Assembly (NCBI GenBank): GCA_963708025.1 | Contig: CAVPSB010000014.1 | Span: 160,001 to 224,000, forward strand | Length of the DNA stretch: 64,000 bases | From: an uncultured Candidatus Rokubacteria bacterium | GTDB lineage: Bacteria > Methylomirabilota > Methylomirabilia > Rokubacteriales > DASRDR01 | Direction: 5' to 3' | In this document: positions 1-62,582 of the stretch, piece after piece | Position numbering within the stretch: position 1 is the first letter of the stretch | How the letters are laid out: each line of letters begins with the position of its first letter | Translations under genes and position numbers: made by a program | Notes under the pieces: model-generated | Told to the model about the DNA's origin: nothing | What the model saw: the letters and a program-made list of their open reading frames with translations, nothing else | The model's database searches: none

Positions 1-2
1 GG

Positions 3-665
3 CGTGCTCGCGGTCGCGAGGTCCCACTTCGTGAAGACGACGTCGACGAAGGACGACCGGCCCAGCATCTCCGCGTCCAGGCAGCTCCGGACGAGCAGCG
101 CCGCGTCGTTCGCCGTCGTGAACCGGTGCTGCCGTTGCCCCAGCCTCGCCCCGTCCACGAGGATGACGAAGTGGTCGGCCCGGCGACTCAGGGTCATCCG
201 GCGGCACTCGTCGGTGGAGTCCTTGGCCAGCCGGACCAGGTCCCCCGGGATCTCCGTCAGCAACAGGTCCCGCCCCGGCCCGTCCAGGGCGGCGGGCCGG
301 ACCCGGAGGTGGAGCCACCGTGGCTCGGCGGTGGCCGCCGTCCGAGCGGTATCGGGAGTCACCCGCCCGGACTCGATGCGGGCCAGGTGACAGCGCCGCT
401 CGAAGCCGAGCAGGCTCCGGGAGCCCGCGAAGAGGTAGCCGGCGAACGGCCCACGCTGGAAGGACTCGTAGAGGGTCGTGAGTAGCATCGTCTTGCCGCT
501 GTCCGGCGGACCGGCCAGGACGACCACCCGGGTGACGGCGGCGCGCACCAAGCTCTCGGCGGCCGCCAGCCCGAGATCCCCCCCATCCGGCAGCTCCAGC
601 CAGTTACCGAGCTGAACGGACTCGCTCCTCGTTACCCCATCACCCGATGACCGACCCTCACTCAC
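3..665 (-). CDS. TRAFAC-clade GTPase of GTPase/GASH conflict systems (double-GTPase-2-like); 3' end runs off the window
   Basis: Not in the ORF track because it has no stop in the window. Manual translation from GTG 665: ...TRVVVLAGPPDSGKTMLLTTLYESFQRGPFAGYLFAGSRSLLGFERRCHLAR...DTART...LLLTEIPGD...ADHFVILVDG...VDVVFTKWD (G1, G2-Thr, G3-like and G4 motifs). Confidence 0.85.
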   Translation of the reverse strand, partial: MSEGRSSGDGVTRSESVQLGNWLELPDGGDLGLAAAESLVRAAVTRVVVLAGPPDSGKTMLLTTLYESFQRGPFAGYLFAGSRSLLGFERRCHLARIESGRVTPDTARTAATAEPRWLHLRVRPAALDGPGRDLLLTEIPGDLVRLAKDSTDECRRMTLSRRADHFVILVDGARLGQRQHRFTTANDAALLVRSCLDAEMLGRSSFVDVVFTKWDLATAST

Positions 666-679
666 GGGGCAACCTCGCT

Positions 680-901
680 GGGGCAGGGCCGAGGAGCGAG
701 CAGCGCCCACAGGCCGAAGGCCGTCCAATGGACGCAGGGAGTCGCCGACCGGAGGCGTACTCCTCGTACGCCGAGGATCGGCGACGACCCCAAAGGCCGA
801 AGGCCGTCCGAACGACGACCGTAGGTCGGGACGGACGCGAGGCCGCAGGCCGAGCGCGTCCCGACCGAGATGAACGTTGCGAAGCTCATCGGCCCTGCCC
901 C
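680..901. mobile_element. MITE-like palindromic element with 13-bp perfect terminal inverted repeats
   Basis: GGGGCAGGGCCGA at 680-692 and its reverse complement at 889-901 (17/18 when extended). Internal hairpins and two AGGCCGAAGGCCGTCC copies. A partial end copy lies at 44237-44261. Confidence 0.7.
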
Positions 902-902
902 C

Positions 903-2069
903 TCAGGACTGGCGCGTCAGGGCCCCTATGAAGAGCGCCTCCTCGTACACCTGCGTGGCCAGGTCCAGCGGACCCACCTGGGCGTAGAGGTTGACGCCCG
1001 TGACCTTGCGCACCGACGGGACCCAGTCATCGGGGCCGTCGCTGTCGATCGAGCGCCGCACGGCGCAGATCACGGGGCAGAGGTCCTCCACTGGCTCCGC
1101 GTTCAGGCCTGCCAGCCAGCGGCTCCGCCACTCCCGCGGCGCCTCGTTCACCGCCTGGTGCACCGTGGTTCCCCCCCGCAGCTCGCGCTCGACGACCCGG
1201 AGCATCTTGTCGAGCACGCCCATCGCCGCCAGCGGGCCGGGCAACACGTCGGTGAGGTCGGCCAGCTCCTTGCCGGCCACCAGGCACGCGGCCGGCAGCG
1301 GCAAGGCGGCCATCGCGTGCCCCAGGTCACGGCTGTGCTCGGCGAACAGCCACCACAGGATGTTCGTCTCCTCGCGCTGGAGCCGGAGCCGCTCCGCGTG
1401 CTCCTGCGTCACCTCGGCCGCGGCGGCCGCGATCTCGAGCAGGGCCGAGGCGACGTTCTGGATCGCCTCCATGGCGTTCCCGGTGGCGAAGGCCTGCTTC
1501 GTCTGCCCGACCGACTGGAAGGGCTCCAGGACGCGGTCGAAGTCGGCGTCCCGCGCCGGCTTGCCCGACGCTCCCGACGACCGGGGCTCCAGGAGGCCCT
1601 CCAGGTCGACGCTGGGTCGGGTCAGGCTCTTGACGTGCTTCGGGGCGCGGAGGCCGCCCGAGCGCGCCGCCAGGTAGCTCCGCGACTCGCGCAGGATGTC
1701 GGCCACTCGCTCCCCGGGGCGGAGCCCGCGGCAGTCGGCGCACGCCATGGCCAGTGCAGCCATGTCCGCCACCGGCCCGCTCCGGACGTCGAGGAGCGAG
1801 ACGATGGTGGCTCCGGCCAGCACCCGGAGCTCGGCGTCGTTGTCGCGCATCGGGAAGGTCAGGTCCCGCGTCTTGAAGCTGTCGCGGTACCGCTCGACGA
1901 AGCGGTGGTCGGTGCGTGGGGAGCCGTAGAAGAGGCGCACGACCTCCAGGGCCTCGGCGGCGTCGAGCGAGTAGACGAGGCTCGAGATCGCCTCCCACCG
2001 CTTGGCCAGGACGTCGGGCTGGGGCTCGATCGCGGCGGTGCGGTACCAATCCGCAAAGTATCGGTGCAA
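903..2069 (-). CDS. GTPase-associated system all-helical protein (GASH-like)
   Basis: 388 aa and helical. N-terminus FADWYR...LAKRWEAI, plus FPMRDNDAELRVLAG, LQREETNILWWLF and C-terminal LATQVYEEAL. Directly upstream of the TRAFAC GTPase. Confidence 0.8.
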   Translation of the reverse strand: MHRYFADWYRTAAIEPQPDVLAKRWEAISSLVYSLDAAEALEVVRLFYGSPRTDHRFVERYRDSFKTRDLTFPMRDNDAELRVLAGATIVSLLDVRSGPVADMAALAMACADCRGLRPGERVADILRESRSYLAARSGGLRAPKHVKSLTRPSVDLEGLLEPRSSGASGKPARDADFDRVLEPFQSVGQTKQAFATGNAMEAIQNVASALLEIAAAAAEVTQEHAERLRLQREETNILWWLFAEHSRDLGHAMAALPLPAACLVAGKELADLTDVLPGPLAAMGVLDKMLRVVERELRGGTTVHQAVNEAPREWRSRWLAGLNAEPVEDLCPVICAVRRSIDSDGPDDWVPSVRKVTGVNLYAQVGPLDLATQVYEEALFIGALTRQS

Positions 2070-2081
2070 GATCGTGCCCTC

Positions 2082-2321
2082 CTACGCGGCTCCGAAAGGA
2101 TTGGAGGTTGTGTCGCCGTCAGGATGCAGCGCCTCGACCTCGCGCCACACCCCGGCCAGCATGTTCCCCTCCCTGGCTCTCCGGAAGAACCGACGAAACC
2201 GCTCCATGTCGGAGACGCCGCCGTCGTCGGGCTCGGCCAGCCCCAGGGCTTCGATCACCACCATGCGCTGCTGGTGCGGAAGGGAGAAGAACCGGTAGAC
2301 GAGCCGTCTACCCGGATCCAC
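2082..2321 (-). CDS. Stand-alone GTPase-associated adaptor domain (GAAD-like) protein
   Basis: 79 aa, RRLVYRFFSLPHQQRMVVIEALGL...FRRFFRRAREGNMLAGVWREVE. Ends 12 bp before the GASH start. An in-frame stop lies upstream at 2352-2354. Confidence 0.65.
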   Translation of the reverse strand: MDPGRRLVYRFFSLPHQQRMVVIEALGLAEPDDGGVSDMERFRRFFRRAREGNMLAGVWREVEALHPDGDTTSNPFGAA

Positions 2322-2595
2322 GGGGGCCCTCGCGGCTGTCGTCGCCGTCCCTCATTGCGTGACGATTATGCTCCCGAAGGGAGCCTGTCATAAACAAAAA
2401 CCCTCCGCCTGTGGCCCGCGGCCGGCTCGCCGCCTGTGAAGCAAATGCCGACGGTTCCCGTGCCGTCGCCCGTCGGCTTCTCGCAACCCTCGGGCTCTGG
2501 CCACGCGGCCGTGGCGTTCCACTTCGAGCCGCGGCTTCTCCGCGGCCTCCGAGGGGGGAATCGGGGGGGTCTTCCGAGACCCCCCCCGGATCCTG

Positions 2596-3432
2596 TCATC
2601 GGGGCGAGCGCAGCGCCGGGTCGAGCGCGTCGCGGAGCCCGTCCCCGAAGAGGTTGAAGCCGAGCACGGTGAGGAAGATGGCCAGCCCCGGGAAGGTGGC
2701 GATCCACCAGGCGGAGGCCAGGAACTGGCGGCCCTCGACGACCATGTTGCCCCAGCTCGGGAGCGGCGGCTGGGCGCCCAGGCCCAGGTAGCTCAGGCCC
2801 GACTCGATGAGGATCGTCTGGCCGAGCAGGAGCGTGGCCTGGACGATGATGACGGGCAGGGCGTTGACCAGGAGGTGGCGGCCGAGGATCCGCCGGTGGC
2901 TGGCGCCGAGGGCGCGGGCGGCGTCCACGAACTCGCGGGCCCGGAGGCTCAGGCACTCGCCGCGGACGACGCGGGCGACGGGCGCCCAGGTGACGAGCCC
3001 GACGACGAGCGCGGTGTTGGCGACGCTGGCGCCGTAGAGGGCGACGACGACCAGGATGAGGAAGAGGGAGGGCACCGCCAGGAAGACGTCGGCGACGCGC
3101 ATGAGGCCGGTGTCCACCGGGCCCGCGAAGTAGCCGGCGGCGCCGCCGAGCGCGGTCCCGACCAGGATCGACAGGCCGGTGGCGACGAAGCCGATCTCGA
3201 GCGACACGCGACTCCCCCAGATGACCCGCGTGAGCACGTCGCGCCCGTAGCCGTCGGTCCCGAGCCAGTGACTCCCGCTCGGCGCCTGGAGCCGCTGGAG
3301 CAGGGATTGGGTCGAGTAGCTGTAGGGCGCGATGGCCGAGGCCAGGACGCCGGTCACGACCATGAGCGCCACCACGATCCCCCCCAGGAGGCCCCGGCGG
3401 TGGTGGAGCAGGCGCGCCGCCGCCGCCCTCAC
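2596..3432 (-). CDS. Peptide/nickel ABC transporter permease (DppC/OppC family)
   Basis: HWLGTDGYGRDV, EFVDAARALGAS (EAA loop), ESGLSYLGLG, FNLFGDGLRDALDP. The GTG start overlaps the upstream stop. Confidence 0.93.
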   Translation of the reverse strand: MRAAAARLLHHRRGLLGGIVVALMVVTGVLASAIAPYSYSTQSLLQRLQAPSGSHWLGTDGYGRDVLTRVIWGSRVSLEIGFVATGLSILVGTALGGAAGYFAGPVDTGLMRVADVFLAVPSLFLILVVVALYGASVANTALVVGLVTWAPVARVVRGECLSLRAREFVDAARALGASHRRILGRHLLVNALPVIIVQATLLLGQTILIESGLSYLGLGAQPPLPSWGNMVVEGRQFLASAWWIATFPGLAIFLTVLGFNLFGDGLRDALDPALRSPR

Positions 3433-8642: not shown

Positions 8643-9526
8643 ATGGAACAACACGATCTGACCTTCGTCATTCCCACCTACCGCCTGGATGTCCGGGAGA
8701 CGCTGCCCCATCACGTCCGGTTGATGGAGCTCGTGTTCAAGGACGTCAGCCGCTTCGACGTGATCCACTTCCACACCGACTACCTGCATTTCCCGCTCGT
8801 GCGACGTCACCGATGCCCGAGCGTCACGACATTACACGGCATGGTCCACCCGCACGATCTGCAGGCACTGCTCGGGGAGTACCGAGACGTTGCGCTGGTG
8901 TCGATCTCGAACGATCAGCGCCGTCCGATTCCCGACGCAAACTGGCAGGCGACCGTCTACCATGGCCTGCCGCGCGAGTCCTTCACATTTCGCGCCGAAC
9001 CAGGGACGTACCTCGCGTATCTCGGGCGGATGTCGCCCGAGAAGCGGGTGGATCGTGCAATTGAGATCGCCCGGCGAGCGGGTGTGCCGCTCAAGATCGC
9101 CGCGAAGATCTACCCGGAGGAGCGGCACTACTTCGACGAGACGCTGGCGCCGCTGATCCACGCGTCACAGTCGCTCGTCGAGTTCGTTGGCGAGATCGGC
9201 AACCGCGAAAGAGACGACCTCCTCGGCAAGGCCGCCGCCCTGCTGTTCCCCATCGAATGGCCTGAGCCATTCGGCCTGGTCATGATCGAGGCCCGGCCTG
9301 CGGAACGCCCGTCGTCGCGTGGCGTCGCGGATCCGTCCCGGAAGTGCTGGAGGAGGGCGTCACCGGACGCATCGTGGACAGCGTCGATGACGCCGTCCGG
9401 GCGGTCGGCAGCATCGAGCGCCTGAGCCGGGCTGCCTGCCGCCGCGCATTCGAACAGCGGTTCGATGCCAGACGCATGGCGATGGACTACCTCGAGGTGT
9501 ATCGCCGCGTCGCTCCGGTCGGCTGA
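8643..9526 (+). pseudogene. GT4 glycosyltransferase lacking its N-terminus (chimeric 5' end), with a frameshift near 9292
   Basis: DVIHFHTDY, TTLHG, YLGRMSPEK, LLFPIEWPEPFGLVMIEA(frameshift)ACGTPV. No MRIAQVAP...GG N-terminal motif. Confidence 0.75.
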
Positions 9527-18900: not shown

Positions 18901-21280
18901 AGCACCGCATCGTCGTTGGCGGCGAGCTGAAATGGGTGCGGGAGCGGGCGCAGGTCGAGTTCGACGCGGATGGCCGCGCCGTGAGGCGGAATCGGCACGG
19001 TCCAGGACATCACCGAGCGGAAGCGGGCGGAGGACGAGATCCGCCGGCTGGCTCGCCTGCAGGCGGAAGCCGCCGAGCTGGGGCAAGACGCCCTGCGCGG
19101 CGCGCCCTTGCAGGAGGTGCTGGACGGCGCGGTCACGCGGGTGGCCCGGGCTCTCGGCGTCGATTACTGCAACGTCGCGGAGATGCTCCCGGGCGGCGAC
19201 GAGTTCCTCCTGCGCGCGGGCGTCGGCTGGAAGGAAGGGGTCGTGGGGCGAGCGACGGTGAAGAGCCGTGGCTCCCAGCCCGGATACACCGTCCTCAGCG
19301 ACCGCCCGGTGATCGTCGAGAACGCGGCGACGGAAACACGCTTCGCCCCGCTGCCGCGGCTGCTCGGTGAAGAGGTCGGGAGCGCGATGAGCGTGGTCAT
19401 CTCCACCGCGGAAGGCCCCTACGGCGCCCTGGGCGCCCATAGCCGGCGTCGGCGGGTGTTCACGGGAGACGAGGTCAACTTCCTCCAGGCGGTCGCCAAC
19501 GTGCTCGGCATGGCCATCGAGCGCCGGCGCGCGGAGGAACGGCTCCGTCGCGTCAATCGCGCGCATCGTGCCCTCAGCACGTCCAACGAGGCCCTGGTCC
19601 GCGCCACCGACGAGTCCGCGCTGCTGCGGCAGATCTGCCAGATCATCGTCGAGGAGGCGGGGTATCGACTCTGCTGGGTCGGCTATGCGGAAGGGGACGC
19701 CGCCCGGACCGTGCGGCCCATCGCGCAAGCGGGGTTCGACGAAGGGTACCTGAAGGCGGCGAACATCACCTGGGCGGACTCCGAGCGCGGCCGCGGGCCG
19801 ACGGGGACCTGCATCCGCACGGGCCAGATCCAGATCGCGAAGAACATCGGCACGGACCCGAAGCTGGCGCCGTGGCGCGCGGATGCGCTCCGGCGCGGAT
19901 ACGCCTCGTGCATCGCCATCCCGCTCGTGGCCGAGGGCCAGCCGTTCGGCGCGCTGACGATCTACTCCCCGGAGATCGAGGCGTTCGGGGACGAGGAGGT
20001 GAGGCTCCTGAGCGAGCTGGCCGGCGATCTGGGCTATGGCATCGTGTCGCTGCGCACGCAGGCCGATCGAAAGAGGGCCGAGGTGGAAGAGGTGGCCCGT
20101 GAGCGCGAGGTCGCGATCGGCTTCAAGATCCAGCAGATGCTGCTCCTGGACGAGCCGCCCCGGGACATCCCCGGACTGCGCGTGGCCGCGCTCGACCGTC
20201 CCCTCGCAGCGGATCGCCGGCGATTTCTACGACTTCTTCACCCACCAGGACGAGAGCCTCGACCTCATCGTCGCGGACGTGATGGGCAAGGGAATCCCTG
20301 CCGCGCTCCTGGGCGCGGCGACCAAGAGCCATTTCACGGAGGCCCTGTGCCACCTGATTGCGCTGTCCCCGGTCGGGGCACTTCCGGAGCCCCGGGAGGT
20401 CGTGACCCTGGCCCATGCGGGCATGGCGCGGCATCTGATCGAGCTCGAGAGCTTCGTGACCCTGTGCTACGCCCGCGTGGACCTGACCCGCCGCCGCCTC
20501 GACCTCGTCGATTGCGGACATACGGGAGTCATCCACGTGCGGGGCGGGACCGATCGCTGCGAGATGGTCCACGGAGACAACCTGCCGCTCGGCATCCGCG
20601 AGGGCGAGATCTACGATCAGATCACCGTCCCGTTCGAGGCCGGAGACGCCTTCCTCTTCTACTCGGACGGGGTCACGGAGGCGTCCAATCCCGCCGGAGA
20701 GCGGTTCGGCGCGGACCGTCTGATGGCTTGTGTCCAGACGAACGCGAATCTCGCGCCCGACGCGCTGGTGGGCGCGATCCGCACGGCCGTCCTCGCATTT
20801 GCCGGCTCGGACCGGCTGACCGATGACCTCACGTGTGTGGCCGTCGAGGTCGGAGAGCGCCGGCGTCCGCTCGCGCGAGGGGAGACGGAGATTCGCAGCG
20901 ACCTCAAAGATCTGAGCCGGGCCCGCGAATTCGTGCGCACCTTCTGCCGCGCACTTCCCGGGCCACCGCTCGACGAGGACCGCGTGGCCGAGCTTGAGCT
21001 GGCGGTGAACGAGGCAGCCAGCAACGTCATGAAGCACGCCTACCATGGGCGCGCCGATCAGCGGATTCATCTCGAGGCCGAAGCGTTTCCGGACCATGTC
21101 GCGGTCCGGCTGCACCATCTCGGAGATCCCTTCGATCCGTCGGCGGTGCCCCCGCCCGCTTTCGATGGCTCCCGCGAGTCCGGATTCGGCGTCTATCTGA
21201 TCACGAGGAGCGTCGACGACGTCCGCTACTATCGCGACGAGCGCGGGGGCAACTGTATCGCCCTGGTCAAGATGCGCTGA
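15905..21280 (+). CDS. Giant membrane sensor: DUF4118-PAS-TM-multiple PAS-GAF-GAF-SpoIIE/PP2C phosphatase-RsbW-like HATPase (frameshifts near 18228, 18985, 20193)
   Basis: FNFFFLPPIYSLTIADPQNW (KdpD-type TM), PAS/PAC ends such as DITERKQAEE, PP2C motifs GDFYD/ADVMGKG/YSDGVTEA/DDLT, and anti-sigma kinase motifs LAVNEAASNVMKHAY...GFGVYLI. Confidence 0.85.
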
Positions 21281-21303
21281 ACCCGAGGTGAGGGACGAAC
21301 ACG

Positions 21304-21632
21304 ATGGCAATCGCATTCGACCGGATGGGCGACGTGACCGTGGCCCTGGTGCCCATGGAGGAGCTCGACGCGGGCAACGCGGCGGAGTTCAAGAGTGACG
21401 TCGCCCCGTTGCTCGAGACCACGACGAGGCTCGTGTTCGACCTGAGCCGGCTGCGCTTCGTGGACAGCTCCGGACTGGGCGCCTTCATCTCGTGCCTGCG
21501 GAAGCTGAACGCCAAGGGCGGCGACGTGAAGCTCTGCGGAGTGTCCAAGCCGGTCCGGGCGGTGTTCGAGCTCGTGCGCATGCACCGGATCTTCGATATC
21601 TGCGGAACGCGAGAGGAGGCCGTGCGGATGTT

Positions 21633-21642
<10 letters not shown>
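21304..21642 (+). CDS. STAS-domain anti-sigma factor antagonist (RsbV/SpoIIAA-like)
   Basis: FDLSRLRFVDSSGLGAF with the phosphoacceptor Ser. Confidence 0.93.
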
Positions 21643-31522: not shown

Positions 31523-33631
31523 ATGGCGACACGACGTCAAGCGCGTCCGCTGTTCGAGTCGCGCCGATCGTCGCGCCGCGCGCATGGTCGACTCGTTCCG
31601 CAAGCTCGACCCGCGCCATGCAGGTGCGCAACCCGGTGATGTTCGTCGTCGAGGTCGGCAGCGTCCTGACGACCGGCGCTGTGCGTCCAGGCGCTGGTCG
31701 GCCACGGCGAGGCGCCGGCCGGGTTCATCCTCGGCGGTCTCGGTCGTGGCTGTGGTTCACCGTGCTGTTCGCCAACTTCGCCGAGGCGATGGCCGAGGGC
31801 CGCGGCAAGGCGCAGGCCGACGCGCTGCGCAGCGCGCGCGCAGCGACGTCCAGGCCAAGAAGCTGCATCGAGCCGCGACGCGGCGGCCGACGTCACGCAC
31901 GGTCACCGTGCCGGCGTCGCTGCGCAAGGGCGACGTCGTCCTCGTCGAGGCCGGCGACGTCATCCCCGGCGACGGCGAGGTCATCGAGGGCGTCGCCTCG
32001 GTCGACGAGAGCGCGATCACCGGCGAGAGCGCGCCGGTGATCCGCGAGAGCGGCGGCGACCGCAGCGCCGTCACCGGCGGCACCCGCGTGCTCTCGGACT
32101 GGCTGATCGTCCGCATCACCGCCAACCCGGGCGAGACCTTCCTCGACCGCATGATCGCCCTGGTCGAGGGCGCCAAGCGCCAGAAGACGCCGAACGAGAT
32201 CGCGCTCAACATCCTGCTGGCGGCGCTGACGATCATCTTCCTGCTCGCCACGCGCGACGCTGCTGCCGTTCTCGCATCTACAGCGTGAGGCGGCGCGGCC
32301 AGGGCACGCCGGTCACGGTGACCGTGCTGGTCGCGCTGCTGGTCTGCCTGATCCCGACGACGATCGGCGGGCTGCTGTCGGCGATCGGCATCGCCGGCAT
32401 GGACCGCATGATCCAGGCCAACGTCATCGCCATGTCGGGCCGCGCGGTCGAGGCGGCCGGCGACGTGGACGTGCTGCTGCTCGACAAGACCGGCACGATC
32501 ACGCTGGGCAACCGCCAGGCGACCGCGTTCATCCCCGCCGCCGGGCGTCGACGAGCGGGAGCCTGGCCGACGCGGCCCAGCTCGCCTCGCTGGCCGACGA
32601 GACGCCCGAGGGGCGCAGCATCGTCGTCCTGGCCAAGGAGAAGTACGGCCTCCGCGAGCGCGACGTCCACGAGACTCGGCGCCACGTTCGTTCCCTTCAC
32701 GCGCGCAGACCCGGATGAGCGGCGTCGACCTGGACGGCCGCGCAGATCCGCAAGGGCGCCGCCGACGCCGATCGAGGCCTACGTGCGGCAGCCAGGGCGG
32801 CGACGTTCCCGGCCGACGTGCGGCACGATGGTCGAGCGGATCGCCAAGCGAGGGCGGCGACGCCCGCTGGTCGTCGCCGACGGCGCGCACGGTGCTCGGC
32901 GTCATCCAGCTCAAGGACATCGTCAAGGGCGGCATCCGGAGCGCTTCGCCGAGCTGCGCCGGATGGGCATCAAGACGGTGATGATCACCGGCGACAACCC
33001 GCTGACCGCCGCGGCCATCGCCGCCGAGGCCGGCGTCGACGACTTCCTGGCCGAGGCCACGCCCGAGGCCAAGCTGAAGCTGATCCGCGAGCTACCAGGC
33101 CGGCGGGCGGCTGGTGGCGATGACCGGCGACGGCACCAACGACGCGCCGGCGCTGGCCCAGGCCGACGTGGCGGTGGCGATGAACACCGGCACCCAGGCC
33201 GCCAAGGAAGCCGGCAACATGGTCGACCTCGACTCCAACCCGACCAAGCTGATCGAGATCGTCGAGATCGGCAAGCAGCTGCTGATGACGCGCGGCGCGC
33301 TGACGACGTTCAGCATCGCCAACGACGTCGCCAAGTACTTCGCGATCATCCCGGCGGCCTTCGCCACCACCTACCCGGCGCTCGAACGCGCTGAACGTCA
33401 TGCACCTGGCCACGCCCGCAGAGCGCGATCCTGTCGGCGGTGATCTTCAACGCGCTGATCATCATCGCGCTGATCCCGCTGGCGCTGCGCGGCGTGCGCT
33501 ACCGGCCGCTCGGCGCCGTCGGCGCTGCTGCGCCGCAACCTGCTGATCTACGGCGTCGGCGGCGCTGATCGCGCCGTTCATCGGCATCAAGCTGATCGAC
33601 CTGCTCCTGGTCGCCCTGCGGCCTGGCCTGA
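31523..33631 (+). CDS. kdpB: K+-transporting P-type ATPase subunit B (many frameshifts)
   Basis: [39 protein letters not shown]. Confidence 0.92.
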
Positions 33632-33645
33632 GCGACGCCGAAGCG

Positions 33646-34239
33646 ATGCCACGACACATGCGACCAGCTCGACCCGGCGCTCGTGATCCTGGTGCTGCTC
33701 ACGCGTCATCACCGGCGTCGTCTATCCGCTGCTGGTCACCGGCATCGCCCAGGTCGTCGTTCCCGCGCCAGGCCAACGGCAGCCTGATCGTGCGGGACGG
33801 CAAGGCGGTCGGCTCGGAGCCTGATCGGCCAGCCGTTCGCCGACCCGAAGTACTTCTGGGGCCGGCCTCTCGGCCACCGCGCCGTTCGCCGTACAACGCC
33901 GGCGCCTCGACCGGCTCGAACCTCGGGCCGCTCCAACCCGGCGCTCGACGACGCGGCGCAAGGCGCGATCGACGCGCTGCGGGCGGCCGATCCCGGCAAC
34001 ACGGCGCCGATCCCGGTCGACCTGGTCACCGCCTCCGGCAGCGGGCTCGACCCGCACATCAGCCCGGCCGCGGCGCTGCTACCAGGTGCGGCGGGTCGCG
34101 AAGGCGCGCGGGCTGGACGAGGCGGCGGTCCGCCAGCTCGTCGAGCAGCACATCGAGGGCCGCCAGCTCGGCGTGCTCGGCGAGCCGCGCGTCAACGTCC
34201 TCGCGCCTGAACCTGGCGCTCGACGGCGCCGCGGGCTGA
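33646..34239 (+). CDS. kdpC: K+-transporting ATPase subunit C (many frameshifts)
   Basis: [43 protein letters not shown]. Confidence 0.88.
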
Positions 34240-34369
34240 CCGCGCGCGAGAGGAGCCCGAGCATGGCCCGCCCCGGCCGTAGGCACGGGACGGCCGGGTC
34301 CCCACGCCGAGCGGGGGCCGGCCCGGACGGGCGAGGCCCGGCGGGCCGAGCCCGGCCGGAGGGCGCAGC

Positions 34370-36216
34370 GTGAATCCCTTCAGCCTCTGCAGTACGCCCT
34401 GTTCCTCGGCCTCGTGCTCCTGCTCGTCCGGCCGGTCGGCCGGTACCTGGAGCGCGTCTTCGCCGGCGAGCGGACGTTCCTCGATCCCGTGATGCGTCCG
34501 CTCGAGCGGGCGATCTATCGGTGGGCCGGCGTCGATCCGCGCGAGGAGATGGACTGGAAGCGATACGCCACCGCGTTCCTGCTGTTCAGCCTCGCCGGGA
34601 CGCTGCTCCTCTACGTGATCCTGCGCCTCCAGCCCGTCCTCCACACCTTCGACCCGGCGTTCCGGCCCGACCCGGTGGCGCCCGACCTGGCGATGAACAC
34701 GGCCATCAGCTTCGCGACCACGACCACGTGGCAGGCCTACGGCGGCGAGACCACCATGAGCTACTTCAGCCAGATCGTGGGACTGGCGGCCCAGAACTTC
34801 CTGGCCGGCGCGGCGGGGCTGGCCGTCGGGATCGCGTTCATCCGCGGGCTGGCCCGCGAGCGACGACGGCCGCTGGGCAACTTCTGGGTGGACCTGGTGC
34901 GGGCGATCCTGTGGGTGCTGCTGCCGCTCTGCGTCGTGGGCAGCCTGGTGCTCGTCTGGCAGGGGGTGCCGCTCAACTTCAACCCCTACCAGGCGGTGCC
35001 GCTGCTCCAGTCGACGAAGGCCGCGGACGGGCGGCCGTCACGACGCAGGTCCTGCCCAGGGGCCGGTCGCGGCGCTCGAGTTCATCAAGAACCTGGGCAC
35101 CAACGGCGGCGGCTTCTTCAATGCGAACGGCGCGCACCCCTACGAGAACCCGACGCCGCTGACGAACTTGCTCGAGATGCTGGCCATCGTGGTGCTGCCG
35201 GCCGCGCTGACCCACACCTTCGGGCGGATGGTCGGGCGCCCGCGCCAGGGCTGGCTGCTGTTCGGGGTCATGGTCGTGCTCTTCGTGGCGGGCCTCGTCG
35301 CGTGTGAGTGGGCCGAGCAGCGCGGGAACCCGCATCTGGCCGGGCTCGGCGTGGACATCGTGGCCAGCGATGCCCAGCCGGGCGGCAACATGGAGGGCAA
35401 GGAGACACGGTTCGGCATCGGGGGCTCGGTGCTGGCGGCGGTCACCACCTCGAACGGCGCGACAGGCTCGTACAACTCGATGCACGACAGCTATACGCCG
35501 CTCGGCGGAGCGGTGCCGCTCGTCAACATGCTGCTGGGCGAGATCGTCTTCGGCGGGCTCGGCACCGGCCTGTACAGCATGATCATGATGGCCCTGATCG
35601 GGGTCTTCGTGGCCGGGCTCATGGTCGGGCGGACCCCGGAGTACCTGGGCAAGCAGATCACCATTCCGGAGATGAAGCTGATCGCGCTGTACACGATCGT
35701 GGCGCCCTTGGTGATCCTGCCGCTCACCGCGCTGGCGGTGGTGACGGACTGGGACTGGGCACGCTCTACCGGCCGGCGCGGCGTTCGACGATCTCGAACC
35801 CCGGCGCGCACGGCTTCACCGAGATGCTCTTCGCGTACGCGAGCTGCTTTGCCAACAACGGCCAGAACTTCGCCGGCCTCGGCGCCAACACCCCGTTCTA
35901 CAACGTCACCATCGCGCTGGCGATGATCGCCGGGCGCTTCGGCCTGGCGATCCCGGCGCTCGCGCTGGCCGGGCGCTTCGCGCAGCAGCAGCGCCGGCCC
36001 CCCGGGCACGGGACGCTGCCGACGGAGACGCCGCTGTTCGGCGCCCTGGTCATCGGCACGATCCTGATCGTCGGCGCCTTGAGCTACTTCCCGGCCCTCG
36101 CCCTGGGGCCGATCGTCGAGCATCTGCTGCTTGATCCCGGGACCATGATTCGGATCCACGCCGGACGGGGTCCCGACCGGATGGCAGGTGGCCGTGATCC
36201 AGGCGGGTGGAGGTGA
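34370..36216 (+). CDS. kdpA: Second, divergent KdpA paralogue (a few frameshifts)
   Basis: [70 protein letters not shown]. Confidence 0.88.
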
Positions 36217-39352: not shown

Positions 39353-41408
39353 GTGATCGAGCACCGACCCGACCCGGACGCGCTGCTGGAGCGGGTGCGC
39401 CAGGAGGAGGCCCGGCGCGCCCGCGGCCGGCTCAAGGTGTTCTTCGGCGCCGCCGCCGGGGTGGGGAAGACCTACGCCATGCTCGTGGAGGCCCGGGAGC
39501 GGCGGGCCGCCGGCGTCGACGTGCTGGTCGGGTACGTCGAGCCCCACGCCCGGCCGGAGACCCAGGCGCTGCTCGACGGGCTCGAGCAGCTGCCGCCCCG
39601 GACGGTGGAGCACCGGGGTGCGCGGCTCCAGGAATTCGACCTGGACGCGGCCCTCGCCCGACGCCCCGCCGCTGGTCCTGGTCGACGAGCTGGCGCACAC
39701 CAACGCCCCCGGCGCTCGCCACGCCAAGCGCTGGCAGGACGTGCTCGAGCTGCTGAAGGCGGGCATCGACGTCTACACGACCTGCAACGTGCAGCACATC
39801 GAGAGCCTGAACGACGTGGTCGCCAAGATCACCGGCGTCCAGGTGCGGGAGACCGTGCCGGACTCGGTCCTGGAGGAGGCGGACGAGGTCGAGCTGGTCG
39901 ACCTCCCGCCCGACGACCTGCTCCAGCGCCTGCGGGAGGGCAAGATCTACCTCCCCGAGCAGGCGGAGCGGGCGGTCGAGAAGTTCTTCCGCAAGGGGAA
40001 CCTGATCGCGCTCCGCGAGCTGGCCCTGCGGACCACCGCCGCCCGCGTGGACGCCCAGATGGACGTCTACCGCCGGGACCACGCCATCCCGACGCCGTGG
40101 CCGGTGACCGAGCGCATCCTGGTCTGCGTCAGCCCCAGCCCGTCCGCCGCCCGCGTGGTGCGGGCCGCTCGCCGGATGGCGGCCGGGCTGCGGGCCGAGT
40201 GGGTCGTGGCCTACGTGGAGACGCCGGCGCAGGCGCGCCTTCCCCAGGCCGAGCGCGACCGCGCGACACAGCACCTCCGGCTCGCGGAGCAGCTCGGGGC
40301 GGAGACGGTCACGCTCACCGGCCACAGCGTGGCCGACGAGGTCGTCGCCCACGCCCGGCAGAAGAACGTCAGCAAGATCGTGATCGGCAAGCCCGCCGGG
40401 TCCCGGTGGCGGGAGGTCCTTTTCGGCTCGGTGGTCAACGACCTGGTCCGGAAGAGCGGCGACATCGACGTCTACCTGATCACCGGAGAGCAGGAAGCGC
40501 CGCGCGCGGCCACCCCGCAGCCCCGTCCCGAGCGGATCGACTGGCGAGCGTACGGCCTGGCGCTCGGGGTCGTGGCCCTCTGTACCGGCGTGAGCGCGGT
40601 CGTCTTCCCGTACCTCGAGCTCGTCAATCTGGTCATGGTCTATCTGCTCGGCGTGGTGCTGGTCGCCACCCGGTCGGGGCGCGGCCCATCGATCCTGGCG
40701 TCGATCCTCAGCGTGGGCGCCTTCGACTTCTTCTTCGTGCCGCCCTATCTCAGCTTCGCGGTGTCCGACACCCAGTACCTCGTGACCTTCGCCGTCATGC
40801 TCCTGGTCGCCGCGGTCATCAGCACGCTGACGGTCCGGGTTCGCCAGCGGGCGGAGTCGGCCCGCGAGCGCGAGCGCCGGACGGCCGCGCTCTACGCGAT
40901 CAGCCGCGAGTTCGCCGGAACGCGCGGGGTGGACGAGCTGGTGCGGGTGGCGGTCCGTCACGTCGGCGACGTCTTCTCGAGCGAGGTGGGAGTCCTCCTG
41001 CCCGACGCCGCCGGCCGTCTGGCTCCCCGGGCGGTCGCGCAGTCGATGGCGGAGGCGGATTCGAGCGAGCGCGGGGTGAGCCAGTGGGTCTACGAGCACG
41101 GCCAGATGGCCGGTCTCGGGAGCGACACCCTGCCGGGCGCCCGGGCGCTCTACCTGCCCCTGGTGGCTTCCCGGGGCACGATCGGGGTCCTGGGGGTGCA
41201 GCCCGCGAGCCCGCAGGCTCTGGCGGCGCCCGAACAGCTCCACCTGCTCGAGACCTTCGCCGCCCAGACCGCCCTGGCGATCGAGCGGGCCATCCTGGCG
41301 GAGGCGGCGCAGCAGGCGCAGCTCCGCGCGGAGTCGGAGCGACTCCGGAGCGCGCTCGGTGCGGGCTCACACGAGAAGCCACCGGAGGTCCGGCTCGACG
41401 CGGGTTAG
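39353..41408 (+). CDS. kdpD: KdpD sensor lacking the HisKA/HATPase kinase core (frameshift near 39668)
   Basis: RPDPDALL, GAAAGVGKTYAML, DELAHTN, USP, four-TM DUF4118 and GAF. Ends ESERLRSAL-GAGSHEKPPEVRLDAG* with no SHDLRTPL H-box. Confidence 0.85.
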
Positions 41409-41653
41409 CCGGCGGGCAGCGTTCCGCGAGGAGGGATCCATGAGTCGAGAAGACCCGATCGAGTGTGGCTGGCCGTCGCCGGGCTGGGCGCCGTCGCGCT
41501 CGGAGTCGCGCTGATCCTGCTCCGAGCGGTCACGTCGGCGTCGAACCTGGCCTTCGTGTTCCTGGCGTTCCCCCACGTCGGGATCTCTTCTTCACGTCGG
41601 TCACGCGCGCGGTGCTGAAGGAGGCGCCGGTGCCGGTGATGGTCGGCGCCTGA
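41374..41653 (+). pseudogene. Mosaic remnant: kdpD tail plus 5' end of the DUF4118 gene fused to the 3' end of a USP gene
   Basis: 41374-41570 aligns with 43248-43445, and 41579-41653 aligns with 39256-39330. Confidence 0.8.
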
Positions 41654-41745
41654 ACGACGGATCCGGGACCAGCTGACCGAGGAGAGTTAGCGGCGGTCAC
41701 GTCGGAGGTCCATCTCAACCTGTACAATACGGGCGAGGCCCAGGA

Positions 41746-43089
41746 ATGGACGAAGCCGCCAGCCTGCGCGAAGCGATGGAGAGCCTGGTCAAGGGGACCG
41801 CCGATCCCCGCGACCAGGCCCGGCTCGAGGAGTCGCATCCAGCCGACGTCGCCGCTGCCCTGCGTCAGCTCCCGCTGGCCGATCAGATCGCGGTCGTCCG
41901 CATGCTCTCGCAGGAGCGCGCCGGCGAGGTCCTCTCCGAGCTGGACGACGACGCCCTCCTGGAGCTGGTGCGCGCGCTCGACGAGGTCGAGGTCTCGCGC
42001 ATCCTCGACAAGATGCCGCCCGAGCACGCCGCCGACGTCGTGGACGAGCTGCCCACCGAGCAGGCCGAAAAGATCCTCGACCTCATGCGGGAGGAGAAGT
42101 CCGAAGAGGTCCAGGAGATCCTCGAGTACCCGGAGCACTCCGCGGGCCGCCTCATGTCACCCGACTTCGTCGCCGTGAACGAGCGGGCGACGGTGGAACA
42201 GGCGATCGAGCACATCCGCAAGTCGGTCTCGGAGGAGCGCGCCTTCGAGCTGTACGTGGTAGACGATCACCGCCATCTGGTCGGCGTCGTCCCCCTGCGG
42301 CGGCTCCTCATCGCCAACCCGAGCAGCCCGGTCTTCGCGGTGCGCGAAGCGAACGTGGTGAGCGTCACGCCCGAGATGGACCAGGAAGAGGTGGCGAGGC
42401 TGGTGGCGAAGTACGACCTCGTAGCCGTCCCGGTGGTCGACCGCCGGCATCACCTCGTGGGCACGATCACCGTCGACGACGTCATCGACATCGTCGGCGA
42501 GGAGGCCTCGGAGGACATCTTCCGGATCGCCGGCTCCGACGCCGCCGAGCTGGAGCGGCGCTCCCCGCGGCAGATCGCCCTCATGCGCCTGCCCTGGGTG
42601 CTGGCCACCCTCTTCATCGAGCTGTGCGCCGGGGTGGTGATCCACTATTTCGACGAGACCCTGAGCCGCGTGATCCTCCTGGCCTCCTTCATGCCGGTCA
42701 TCCAGGCGATCTCCGGGAACACGGGACTGCAGTCGGTGACGATGGTCGTCCGGGGTCTCGCGACCGGCCAGGTGCAGCTGGCGCGCTGGTGGGAGGCCCT
42801 GCGGCGGCAGATCCAGACGTCGAGCATCCTCGGCGGAGTGTGTGGCATCCTGGTCGGGATCATCGGCCTCCTCTGGCACTCGCCGGCCTTCGGGCTCGTC
42901 GTCGCCGTGTCCATGTTCATCTCCGTCAACCTCTCCGGCGTGGCCGGTACGGCCATTCCGATGCTCTCCAAGCGGCTCGGCTTCGACCCCGCCCTCACCG
43001 CCGGTCCCTTCGAGACGGCGTTCCAGGACGTGCTGGGGATCACGATCTTCCTCTCGCTCGCCACCGCGCTCCTGCACTGGCTGACGTGA
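41746..43089 (+). CDS. mgtE: Magnesium transporter MgtE
   Basis: N domain, SAGRLM and CBS pair, GNTGLQS, DPALTAGPF...D. Confidence 0.93.
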   Translation: MDEAASLREAMESLVKGTADPRDQARLEESHPADVAAALRQLPLADQIAVVRMLSQERAGEVLSELDDDALLELVRALDEVEVSRILDKMPPEHAADVVDELPTEQAEKILDLMREEKSEEVQEILEYPEHSAGRLMSPDFVAVNERATVEQAIEHIRKSVSEERAFELYVVDDHRHLVGVVPLRRLLIANPSSPVFAVREANVVSVTPEMDQEEVARLVAKYDLVAVPVVDRRHHLVGTITVDDVIDIVGEEASEDIFRIAGSDAAELERRSPRQIALMRLPWVLATLFIELCAGVVIHYFDETLSRVILLASFMPVIQAISGNTGLQSVTMVVRGLATGQVQLARWWEALRRQIQTSSILGGVCGILVGIIGLLWHSPAFGLVVAVSMFISVNLSGVAGTAIPMLSKRLGFDPALTAGPFETAFQDVLGITIFLSLATALLHWLT

Positions 43090-43109
43090 GAGCGTGTGAA
43101 GGAATGGCG

Positions 43110-43172
43110 TCCTCCGACTCCCCCCTCCCCCCAGTGGGTGGGGGAGGGGGCTGGGGGGGTGGGCGGGAGGTC
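43110..43172. repeat. REP-like G/C-tract repeat (inverted copy)
   Basis: CCCCCCTCCCCCCAGTGGGTGGGGGAGGGGG...GGGTGGGCGGGAGG. Confidence 0.7.
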
Positions 43173-43192
43173 TCGAACTGAGGTCTGACGCC

Positions 43193-43282
43193 ATGACCGA
43201 GCAGCGGCCCGATCCCAACGAGGTACCGGAGTGGGTCTGCGCCGCCCAGAAGGCACCCGAGGCCCGGCTCGACGCGAGTTAG
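43193..43282 (+). pseudogene. 29-aa kdpD relic (N-terminal motif joined to C-terminal tail)
   Basis: MTEQRPDPNEVPEWVCAAQKAPEARLDAS* compared with kdpD MIEHRPDP...EKPPEVRLDAG*. Confidence 0.55.
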
Positions 43283-43313
43283 CCGGCGGGCAGGGATCCG
43301 CGAGGAGGCATCG

Positions 43314-44096
43314 ATGAGTCGAGAGGACCCGATCGAGGTGTGGCTGGCGGTCGCCGGGCTGGGCGCGGTCGCGCTCGGAGTCGCGCTGATCCCGCTCCGA
43401 GCGGTCACGTCCGCGTCGAACCTGGCCTTCGTGTTCCTGGCCTTCACGATCGTCGTCGCCGAGATGGGCGGCCGCGGGCCGGCGTTGCTGGCGGCGCTCG
43501 TCTCGGCGATGAGCCTCGACTTCTTTCTCACCGAGCCCTACCTGACGCTGGCGATCAGCAAGACGGACGACGTGATCGCGTTCGCCGGGCTGGTCGGGTG
43601 CGGGCTCATCGCCGCCGCGTTCGGCGCCCGCCGGGCCCGCTGGTCCGAGACCGCCCGCCGCGCGGCCGGGGAGCTGGACGTGCTGAAGGGGGTGAGCGGG
43701 CGACTGGCCGAGGGGGCGTCGCTCGACGGCGTCCTCGAGGACCTGCGCCGGGCCTTCCGCCTGGGGACGGTGGCCCTGCGGGACGCCGACGAGCGCGTCA
43801 TCGCCGTGACGCCACCGGGTGCGGCGGCTCCGGGAGCTCCCACCGCGCGCCTGAACCCCGGCTCGCTGCTGGCGTCCGACGCGACGACGCACCGGTTCGG
43901 CCCCCGGGGCCTCCGCCTCCCCGAAGGGGGCGGGCGCCTGCGCCTCCCGGCCGGGGAGGACGTCGTCTGGCTCGATCTCCAGGAGGGCGATCCGCTGGGC
44001 CTCGACCTCGACGAGCGCGAGACGCTGTCGATCGCGGCCTCGATCCTGGGGCTAGCGCTGGCCCGCGCGCGCCGCCGCCTCGGCCCCGCCGCCTAG
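43314..44096 (+). CDS. Stand-alone DUF4118 (KdpD-type TM) protein with GAF-like tail
   Basis: SNLAFVFL...MSLDFFLTEPYLTLAISKTDD, with no kinase motifs. Confidence 0.8.
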   Translation: MSREDPIEVWLAVAGLGAVALGVALIPLRAVTSASNLAFVFLAFTIVVAEMGGRGPALLAALVSAMSLDFFLTEPYLTLAISKTDDVIAFAGLVGCGLIAAAFGARRARWSETARRAAGELDVLKGVSGRLAEGASLDGVLEDLRRAFRLGTVALRDADERVIAVTPPGAAAPGAPTARLNPGSLLASDATTHRFGPRGLRLPEGGGRLRLPAGEDVVWLDLQEGDPLGLDLDERETLSIAASILGLALARARRRLGPAA

Positions 44097-54585: not shown

Positions 54586-55456
54586 TCACGCGGCGAGCCC
54601 CATCTGGCGCTGGATGGCGCGGCTCAGCTCGCTCTTCGGGTCCTCGAGCTGGGTGATGATCGAGAAGTGGTTGATGCCCGCCATGTCCAGCACCTCGCAC
54701 GGCACGCCCTGCTTCCGCCACACCGCGGCCAGCGTCTCGGTCTGGCGGTGGTACTCGGGGCCCTCGTCCCCGCCGACCGGGATCAGCAGCGGGGAGCGGG
54801 TTCGCGGCGCCAGGTAAATCGGGCTGTTGCGGCGCGCCTCCTCAGGCGTCAGCTTCAAGGTGTCGTTGAGGTAGCAGAGGCGGATCGGGTCGAGGTCGTG
54901 GAGCCCGCTGATCGCGCAGCCGCCCTTGATCGGATCGGGCGGGAGCCCGAAGGCCGGCCAGTCGGCGGCCAGCAGCATCGCCACCAGGTGGCCGCCGGCC
55001 GAGTGCCCGGAGACGAAGATGCGCTCCCGGTCGCCTCCGAACGAGGCGGCGTTCGCGTGGACCCAGGCGATCGACGCCCGGCACTGCCGGACCAGCTCGT
55101 CCATGTCGACCGTCGGGATCAGGGCGTAGTTGATCACGACGACCGCGGCCCCGGCCGGCTGGAGCCCCCGGGCCACGAAGCTGAAGTCCGCGCTTGTCGA
55201 GGGCCATCCAGTAGCCGCCGTGGACGAAGACGTGGACCGGCGCCGGGCCGCGGCCGGGGGCGGGGAACACGTCGAGCGTCTCGCTCGGCTTCGGGCCGTA
55301 CGCCACGTCGAGCCGGCCGGGGAGGGCCTGTCGCGTCGCCTCGCTCTCCCGGGTGTAGCGGGCGAGGTAGTCGGCGAAGTCGGCGACCTTGGCGCGGTTG
55401 TTGTACTCGCGGTCGAGCGCCGCGCGGTCGTAGCCGAGGAAGATCGGAGCGGGCAT
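54586..55456 (-). CDS. Alpha/beta hydrolase (arylformamidase/esterase-like), frameshift near 55191
   Basis: LDREYNNRA, HGGYW, GHSAGGHL, NHF. Confidence 0.88.
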
Positions 55457-56220: not shown

Positions 56221-56360
56221 GACCTCCCGCCCAGATCCTTTGACGGCCTTCGGCCTTTGGCCCCCCTCGGTTGACCGGATCGCCGGGACGGCTCGGGCCT
56301 GCGGCCCTCGCGGCGTCCCGCCCCTCCGGTGGCCACCCGGGGAGGGGGGTGTCGGAGGCC
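56221..56360. repeat. Composite REP-like repeat
   Basis: CCTCCCGCCCA...GACGGCCTTCGGCCTTTGGCCCCCC...GGGGAGGGGGGTGTCGGAGG. Confidence 0.65.
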
Positions 56361-62497: not shown

Positions 62498-62582
62498 ACC
62501 TCCCGCCCACCCCCCCAACCCCCCTCCCCCACCGTTCGACGGCCTTCGGCCTTTGGCCGGGGGGAGGGGGGTGCCGGAGGGA
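62498..62582. repeat. REP-like G/C-tract repeat
   Basis: CCTCCCGCCCACCCCCCCAACCCCCCTCCCCCACC...GACGGCCTTCGGCCTTTGGCCGGGGGGAGGGGGG. Confidence 0.7.

Follow-up and report, generated by a model that had tools for sequence, protein, structure and literature searches.

Promoter-proximal part of a probable GAP1-N1-type DO-GTPase conflict operon with a free GAAD adaptor in a Rokubacteria bacterium

We analysed a stretch of 64,000 nucleotides (nt), here called the window, from an uncultured Candidatus Rokubacteria bacterium (contig CAVPSB010000014.1, positions 160,001 to 224,000). Its first 2.3 kb, at positions 3-2321, very probably form the promoter-proximal part of a GAP1-N1-type DO-GTPase conflict operon, of a derived, effector-less subtype belonging to a Rokuibacteriota-related clade. 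The original prediction, made from the letters alone, had read this segment as three co-oriented minus-strand genes of a GTPase-centred conflict system, and the listing of open reading frames (ORFs) confirms the three genes: 2321..2082 (79 amino acids, aa), 2069..903 (388 aa), and a third that begins no higher than 728 and runs to 3 (at most 242 aa). All three visible frames are free of stops and frameshifts, and the nearest protein matches are 97% and 65% identical. The features of the locus are as follows.

2082..2321, minus strand: GAAD gene (PF19976), a free 79-aa adaptor with no effector domain; GTG start, with GAGG 7 nt upstream.
903..2069, minus strand: GASH gene (PF19994), 388 aa; TTG start 12 nt past the GAAD stop, with GGAGG overlapping the GAAD stop codon.
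680..901, minus strand: structured spacer between GASH and DO-GTPase2, 222 nt; an 18-nt inverted repeat closes a multi-hairpin domain.
3..728 (longest ORF; likely start GTG 665), minus strand: 5' part of the DO-GTPase2 gene (PF19993), a TRAFAC-type P-loop GTPase cut by the window edge.
2322..2470, minus strand: upstream non-coding stretch; a terminator-like hairpin (2468..2449) after an ABC permease gene, then a locally A+T-richer stretch.

Family membership carries the assignment. A Pfam search for the GAAD, GASH and DO-GTPase families, set as a test beforehand, placed all three proteins above the gathering scores: GAAD at E = 9.8e-16 (58 bits against a cut-off of 23.6, residues 5-63), GASH at E = 3e-28 (99.6 bits against 27, residues 4-379 of 388) and DO-GTPase2 at E = 1.2e-35 (123.7 bits against 27, profile positions 2-173 of 226). 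The G+C content of the first 2.3 kb is 72%, and a chance pattern of ORFs in such DNA is excluded because all three match above curated cut-offs. Among 132 GASH homologues, PF19994 was found in 120 of the 120 listed. The P-loop GTPase motifs are present as the original prediction quoted them, GPPDSGKT at residues 73-80 and TKWD at 233-236, and in an alignment with 18 relatives they fall on the conserved G1 and G4 columns.

Gene order points the same way. We aligned 36 GASH homologues and took 23 loci from reference genomes. All 23 have the order GAAD, GASH, DO-GTPase2, DO-GTPase1, GAP1, as seen with Pfam on 120 neighbouring ORFs and with a profile scan in six frames whose profiles were built from the same 23 loci, so that the latter shows order and presence rather than independent detection. 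The three genes of the window thus co-occur in the same order throughout, with GAAD immediately upstream of GASH here as in all 23 loci. The three families of the predicted triad stand; its size does not, since the system has five genes, all present in 21 of the 23 loci, the other two ending at contig ends. Shine-Dalgarno-like purine cores precede the GAAD, GASH and DO-GTPase2 starts, consistent with an operon.

The same synteny supports the prediction that the locus continues left of the window, almost certainly with a second GTPase and GAP1, if these relatives are a guide. DO-GTPase1 directly follows DO-GTPase2 in 22 of the 23 loci (the contig of L007 ends before the gene, and the copy in L011 is truncated by a contig end), and GAP1 is found in all 21 loci that reach that far. 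By this comparison, an expected layout of about 110 further codons of DO-GTPase2, then DO-GTPase1 (about 285 aa), then GAP1 (about 700-830 aa) beyond the left edge is well supported. No second copy of any system component, DO-GTPase and GAP1 included, occurs elsewhere in the window.

What sets the locus apart is its GAAD. In the excerpts of Kaur et al. (2020; PMC7159879) on which we draw here and below, GAAD is described as a helical family found only in these systems, and the variable effector may be joined to GAP1 or to the small adaptor GAAD, or be recruited through EAD1. None of these couplings is seen in the window: 79 aa are too short for an enzyme, and no coding sequence lies between GAAD and the permease gene. 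Among the 23 related loci the core is constant and the enzyme part changes. GAAD forms the C-terminal ~75 residues of a calcineurin-like phosphoesterase (Metallophos) in 11 of them; in a twelfth, L004, it lies in a separate frame after the Metallophos enzyme, probably through a frameshift. One locus has GAAD fused to a PNP_UDP_1 enzyme, one to a SIR2 enzyme, and eight to a region of 160-280 aa without a Pfam match. Fusion or splitting therefore accounts for 22 of the 23, and only one locus, L001, has a bare GAAD.

L001, from a Candidatus Rokuibacteriota metagenome-assembled genome (MAG), is also the closest relative of our locus (64% GASH identity), and there too a free 79-aa GAAD, 65% identical to that of the window, is followed by GASH, DO-GTPase2, DO-GTPase1 and GAP1-N1. 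Upstream of GAAD the two part company, with rph and a Ham1-family gene (rph-rdgB) in L001 and ABC permease genes and miaB in the window; because these neighbours differ, the shared unit starts at the bare GAAD in both. The ratio of nonsynonymous to synonymous substitution rates (dN/dS) between them is 0.19 for GAAD, 0.34 for GASH and 0.33 for the GTPase, so the free GAAD is at least as constrained as its neighbours, which indicates that it is under purifying selection.

Bare forms are not confined to these two loci. Homologues make up 20 protein clusters of 65-103 aa, 47-91% identical to the window GAAD (19 of 79-103 aa at 59-91%, one of 65 aa at 47%), some of them on contigs of 18, 26, 118 and 131 kb (up to 131,120 nt). 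Among the best 150 of 304 GAAD representatives, 34 are bare (at most 96 aa), though some of these may be gene-calling artefacts of fragmented or frameshifted contigs, 26 carry a short extension at the N-terminus, 85 have over 70 residues ahead of GAAD, and five have GAAD at the N-terminus. A GASH tree of 17 rows pairs the window with L001 as sisters (100/100) and places the pair, at modest support (83-84), among systems bearing phosphoesterase or PNP enzymes; the tree has a midpoint root only and omits L004, L006, L008, L012, L014, L020 and L022 (split genes, duplicates or doubtful ORF calls). On this topology the bare state looks derived. We conclude from these comparisons that the bare GAAD marks a conserved subtype without a recognisable effector, and is no accident of one assembly.

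A few residues before its C-terminus, GAAD carries an Asn-Pro-Phe/Tyr motif (window residues 74-76) that is kept in at least 90% of the 23 sequences. This motif may be a docking peptide.

The case for a conflict role of the family is fairly strong, if indirect, and is read from relatives. Their enzyme parts match, in PADLOC, the SIR2 effectors ThsA and LmuA, CBASS-type purine-nucleosidase effectors and PDC-S60 (SIR2 of L021, E = 2.2e-16; PNP of L005, E = 2.1e-18). In the flanks of 21 loci, 27 of 148 ORFs, in 15 of the loci, match PADLOC at E <= 1e-10, against 0 of 36 ordinary window ORFs (Fisher p = 0.0017), where the flank ORFs, of at least 150 aa, were called crudely as longest ORFs and the control is one genome region. 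Related loci are spread over at least eight phyla, with flanks that differ even between close relatives. The PADLOC matches in the flanks include the following.

L018, 15240-20901: DISARM DrmA/B/C, directly beside the operon.
L016, 12-5677: a type III restriction-modification pair and SoFic.
L021, 12156-14470: type I restriction-modification genes.
L015, 15538-20672: a DruE-like helicase (Druantia-type).
L014: BrxHI; L005: bSEFIR; L013: PD-T4-6.
L012 and L019: reverse transcriptases; L006: TniQ.

In some relatives GAAD, GASH, GTPase1 or GAP1 is split over at least two frames: L002 (13092-15427), L004 (8608-9983), L014 (9992-11039 and 12932-15024), L020 (9989-14966) and L022 (10001-12724). These splits may be either MAG assembly errors or real decay.

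From the published description (PMC7159879) and the anatomy of the locus, we propose how such a system might work. The two paralogous GTPases would form a GTP-dependent switch, to which GAP1 would couple the sensing of an invader. GASH would serve as a helical scaffold and GAAD as the docking module that brings an enzyme (calcineurin-like phosphoesterase, purine-nucleoside-phosphorylase-like or SIR2) to this core, and switching would unleash the docked enzyme; the published conjecture has GAP1 as the docking partner of GAAD. Because both GAAD and GAP1 are enzyme-less in the clade of our locus, the killing or blocking part would there be encoded beyond GAP1, or the free GAAD would have a role of its own.

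Several observations weigh against a conflict operon at this site, and we set them out together. This copy has no visible effector domain, and the 36 ORFs of the remaining 61 kb rightward include no recognised defence or mobile-element gene; its Pfam neighbours are housekeeping genes. The prediction of a defence locus is hence borne out by the relatives, with their Thoeris- and CBASS-like effector domains and defence neighbours, and not by the effector content or surroundings of this copy. Even among the relatives, the flank analysis has the crude calls and single control region noted above, and several of its matches are to generic domains (kinase, methyltransferase, group-II-intron-like reverse transcriptase). 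PADLOC-DB 2.0.0 and NCBIfam contain no models for the core proteins: both returned only P-loop noise for the three window proteins, and PADLOC has no models for the GASH, GTPases and GAP1 of a canonical system either. The completeness of the operon is deduced from synteny, with DO-GTPase1, GAP1 and any later genes lying outside the window. Experimental work on members of DO-GTPase systems was absent from the full-text literature searched, and PDB sequence searches yielded no solved structure of any component, in agreement with the remark in the original prediction that such systems have little experimental characterisation.

The GTPase itself adds two further points on that side. Its G3 motif (window ~240-260) reads ExxGD, and that of L001 ExxSD (about 7290), where the 17 other relatives all have DxxGE; both acidic residues are kept, with positions exchanged. 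The Walker B glutamate is called characteristic of the DO-GTPase family in the excerpts (PMC7159879), and judging from the motif alone the exchanged acids may or may not keep GTPase activity. The N-terminal zinc ribbon lacks any Cys/His ligand set in the window protein, although the remnant still aligns with the ribbon of L001, whose cysteines are kept. Finally, the spacer before the GTPase, 27 nt in L001 and 0-30 nt in relatives, is here a structured element of 222 nt, a possible sign of decay.

Such features could be those of a decaying remnant: a canonical system that has lost its effector and zinc ribbon and taken up a repeat insertion before the GTPase, a pseudo-operon in the making. The enzyme-less GAAD, the missing ribbon cysteines, the altered G3 motif, the repeat-bearing 174-237 nt that separate GASH from the GTPase start, and the split genes of the five relatives named above all fit this account, which we nevertheless consider improbable. 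The three visible frames are open; comparison with a relative about 64% identical gives a dN/dS of 0.19-0.34; the bare 79-aa GAAD is kept in L001 and the bare form recurs in 20 clusters; and the acids of G3 are swapped, not lost. Absence of the ribbon is in fact the commoner state, as 13 of the 18 aligned relatives lack it (L001, L002, L003, L005 and L021 have it), and the published excerpts report the ribbon for 60% of DO-GTPases, so that it is typical but not obligatory (PMC7159879). Selection and the wide occurrence of the bare-GAAD clade thus speak against decay of this copy. The locus might instead be a GTPase module of cellular signalling or housekeeping, without any conflict role and placed in the chromosome beside transport and tRNA-modification genes. 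Such a module would explain the Opp/Dpp-type permease and MiaB neighbours and the lack of defence matches and of a visible effector in the window, and it would suit Table 1 of the survey (PMC7159879), which in the excerpted form shows no association of GAP1-N1 systems with a multicellular habit. We hold it to be extremely improbable, since homologous loci occur across at least eight phyla in flanks that differ even between close relatives, the relatives' NADase-, nucleosidase- and phosphoesterase-type effectors are shared with Thoeris and CBASS, and the relatives' flanks are enriched in defence genes.

A third alternative concerns the free GAAD, which could be a regulatory subunit in its own right. 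Most systems would make it by starting translation internally, where effector and GAAD meet, and it would compete with effector-GAAD proteins for the docking site; the bare clade would keep only this regulator and use an effector from elsewhere. Within two codons of the point at which the window GAAD starts, 15 of 20 fused genes have ATG, GTG or TTG, against 4.4 expected, and in 12 of the 20 a Shine-Dalgarno-like core also lies 5-16 nt ahead of this codon, where the other in-frame positions in these genes would predict 0.43. The core accompanies 12 of the 15 boundary start codons and none of the five boundaries without one (random-codon background 0.22). The genes concerned are these.

Fused genes with boundary start and core: L002, L003 (9738), L007, L009-L011, L013, L015-L018, L020.

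At the residue aligned with the window initiator, 85 fused representatives, one per 50%-identity cluster, have Met in 44, Val in 13 and Leu in four, where the Met background of the upstream part is 1.1%; the 34 bare proteins among the best 150 representatives speak for the same idea. The signal may reflect internal initiation that releases free GAAD from fused genes. A hydrophobic structural position behind a purine-rich linker also fits, and the boundary position does tolerate Phe, Ile and Tyr; moreover, the fused loci are not independent, falling into only about seven lineages, and some bare representatives are possibly gene-calling artefacts. We rate the regulatory subunit as a highly improbable account of the locus.

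A broader speculation, which we think unlikely, is that free GAAD is a general rule: an internal start in most DO-GTPase systems would supply a competitor or threshold-setter for effector docking, and in the Rokuibacteriota-type clade this regulator would have stayed after the fused enzyme was moved or dropped. If the N-terminal half of GAP1 is also a longin/DENN-like GTPase regulator, as it may be, such systems would parallel, in prokaryotes, regulated small-GTPase modules, and would have an antitoxin-like safety subunit.

Our preferred reading, an effector-less subtype of the conflict operon, leads to the GAP1 of the clade. The L001 contig ends inside GAP1 (fragment 8770-9480), and a database protein, P0121 (745 aa), is identical over the fragment. 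P0121 and nine relatives (62-69% identity) are 692-832 aa long, and in all ten Pfam finds only GAP1-N1. Their extra length is a variable proline/alanine-rich insert of 0 to about 130 aa, which the alignment places after the middle part and before the C-terminal part and which is disordered in an AlphaFold2 model of P0121 (residues 441-520). With GAAD bare and GAP1 showing only GAP1-N1, neither is enzyme-bearing in this clade; a separate effector gene after GAP1 is possible.

The AlphaFold2 model of P0121 (66 sequences) has a predicted local distance difference test score (pLDDT) of 87.3, and its residues 4-88 run strand-strand-helix-strand-strand-strand, which we take to be the order of a longin domain. 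Foldseek against PDB gave no match at E <= 0.001; below significance were 3tw8_C (probability 0.96, E = 0.07, target-normalised template modelling (TM) score 0.38), 7mge_C (0.72) and 6nzd_I (0.23). DENN and longin Pfam families had no match in 66 GAP1 proteins even at E <= 10, and neither name is mentioned in the excerpted text of Kaur et al. (PMC7159879). A longin/DENN-like N-terminus is a weak lead only, suggested by the model. The likeness to the eukaryotic longin/DENN regulators (DENND1B-Rab35, C9orf72-SMCR8, FLCN-FNIP) consists in the strand order of the modelled N-terminus and the sub-significant Foldseek matches; against it stand the missing significant fold and Pfam matches, and GAP1 lies outside the window.

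The helicity that the original prediction ascribed to the two smaller proteins rests on different grounds for each. The AlphaFold2 model of GASH consists of helices throughout (mean pLDDT 86.3; predicted TM score, pTM, 0.81), with two helical lobes linked by a disordered low-confidence stretch (163-194) and a 50-residue helix, whereas the 79-aa protein is helical only by the family description (PMC7159879). Foldseek found no PDB fold match to GASH at E <= 0.001 (best E = 0.27, TM 0.2), and an ESM Atlas search with it gave no usable match and no model. Sequence searches of PDB with GASH, GAAD and GAP1 profiles gave no matches, and the GTPase profile only marginal P-loop matches.

Between GASH and the GTPase lies the structured spacer. 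The GASH stop is at 905..903, and the distance to the GTPase start is 174 nt for TTG 728 or 237 nt for GTG 665. GTG 665 is the more likely start because it lies, with GAGG 7 nt upstream, just outside the RNA structure, and TTG 728 inside it. A 75-aa ORF in another frame (662..889, 14 nt past the GASH stop) was considered as the ancestral GTPase start, shifted by the 83-nt repeat; it shows no zinc-ribbon-like cysteine pattern, and the idea found no support.

Within the spacer a 29-nt stretch recurs imperfectly as a direct repeat (706-734 and 789-817, spacing 83), and there are additional hairpins. The predicted RNA fold of the spacer, at -149.3 kcal/mol (z = -5.47), was not equalled in stability by any of 200 shuffles. 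Two copies of a 16-nt hairpin motif with a GGCC-TTC-GGCC core, resembling repetitive extragenic palindromic (REP) elements, lie at 711-726 and 794-809; others are at 54944-54959, 56241-56256 and 62537-62552, making five matches in the window with at most two mismatches, against 0.15 expected. This GC-rich motif looks like a REP-type dispersed repeat of the genome. Copies of the 18-nt inverted-repeat arm elsewhere in the window do not exceed chance, so that calling the spacer a mobile element is not supported. Rfam gave no matches on window 1-3000 at E <= 1. The structure is no typical terminator, since no U-tract follows it. Intercistronic REP elements are a model for how such a spacer could act on transcript stability, and the spacer may likewise stabilise the GAAD-GASH part of the transcript and lower the expression of the GTPase and GAP1.

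Upstream, the stretch at 2322..2470 probably holds the operon's own promoter region, to judge from its terminator-like hairpin and A+T-richer part, and a sigma-70 promoter scan found no sites above threshold. Beyond it the same strand carries a pair of ABC permease genes of the Opp/Dpp type and a gene of the MiaB type.

The locus belongs to a family already described; what differs is the bare GAAD, the modified GTPase2 and the inserted structured spacer. In the full-text literature searched, only one paper naming the GAAD, GASH and DO-GTPase families turned up (Kaur, Burroughs, Iyer & Aravind, eLife 2020; PMC7159879); a 2026 preprint from the same group, seen in excerpt, counts DO-GTPases among immune GTPases and calls them 'recently characterized'. 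As described in the former, GAP1-N1 systems comprise two paralogous DO-GTPases, a three-domain GAP1, a helical GASH and a variable effector. Our locus shares the GAAD, GASH and DO-GTPase2 families, the gene order and the G1 and G4 motifs. It differs from the systems as excerpted in its free GAAD, in a clade GAP1 that has only the proline/alanine-rich insert in place of a fused effector or EAD1, in a DO-GTPase2 without zinc ribbon and with ExxGD instead of DxxGE, in the 222-nt spacer, and in a host clade (closest relative Rokuibacteriota) outside the phyla named there as commonest.

Other systems are more distant. GAP1-N2-type systems also pair TRAFAC GTPases with a GAP1 protein, but according to the excerpts (PMC7159879) FNIII-repeat proteins replace GASH, GAAD is absent and the systems are often membrane-linked; our locus has both GASH and GAAD, and the relatives' GAP1 is of the N1 type. 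The MoxR-vWA ternary systems (VMAP, iSTAND), a comparison drawn in the excerpted text by its authors, likewise combine a constant NTPase switch and a constant third component with variable, overlapping effectors, but use an AAA+ ATPase and vWA instead of GTPases and GAP1, and we found no sequence relation to them. The SIR2 effectors of Thoeris (ThsA) and Lamassu (LmuA) and the purine-nucleosidase-type effectors of CBASS resemble, by PADLOC, the enzyme halves of the relatives' effector-GAAD proteins; the window GAAD has no such domain, and the sensing and switching parts are unrelated.

As plain annotation the locus is ordinary: Pfam covers its families, and proteins of this kind are already named by some source pipelines. 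Its interest lies in DO-GTPase systems being a widespread predicted immune module, of which a conserved enzyme-less subtype asks what the core does alone and what GAAD binds. If active, the bare-GAAD clade would separate sensing and switching from the killing enzyme, making the mechanism easier to dissect, and the start-codon signal at the boundary may point to a hidden regulatory subunit.

Elsewhere in the window, 31584-35304 and 39618-44093 contain KdpA and P-type ATPase fragments beside a sensor resembling KdpD and another DUF4118 protein; under the strict ORF filter the kdp genes show up as short ORFs. The plus strand at 20036-21642 encodes an ordinary partner-switching module, in which a fusion of a SpoIIE phosphatase with a HATPase_c_2 kinase domain of the anti-sigma type precedes a STAS protein.

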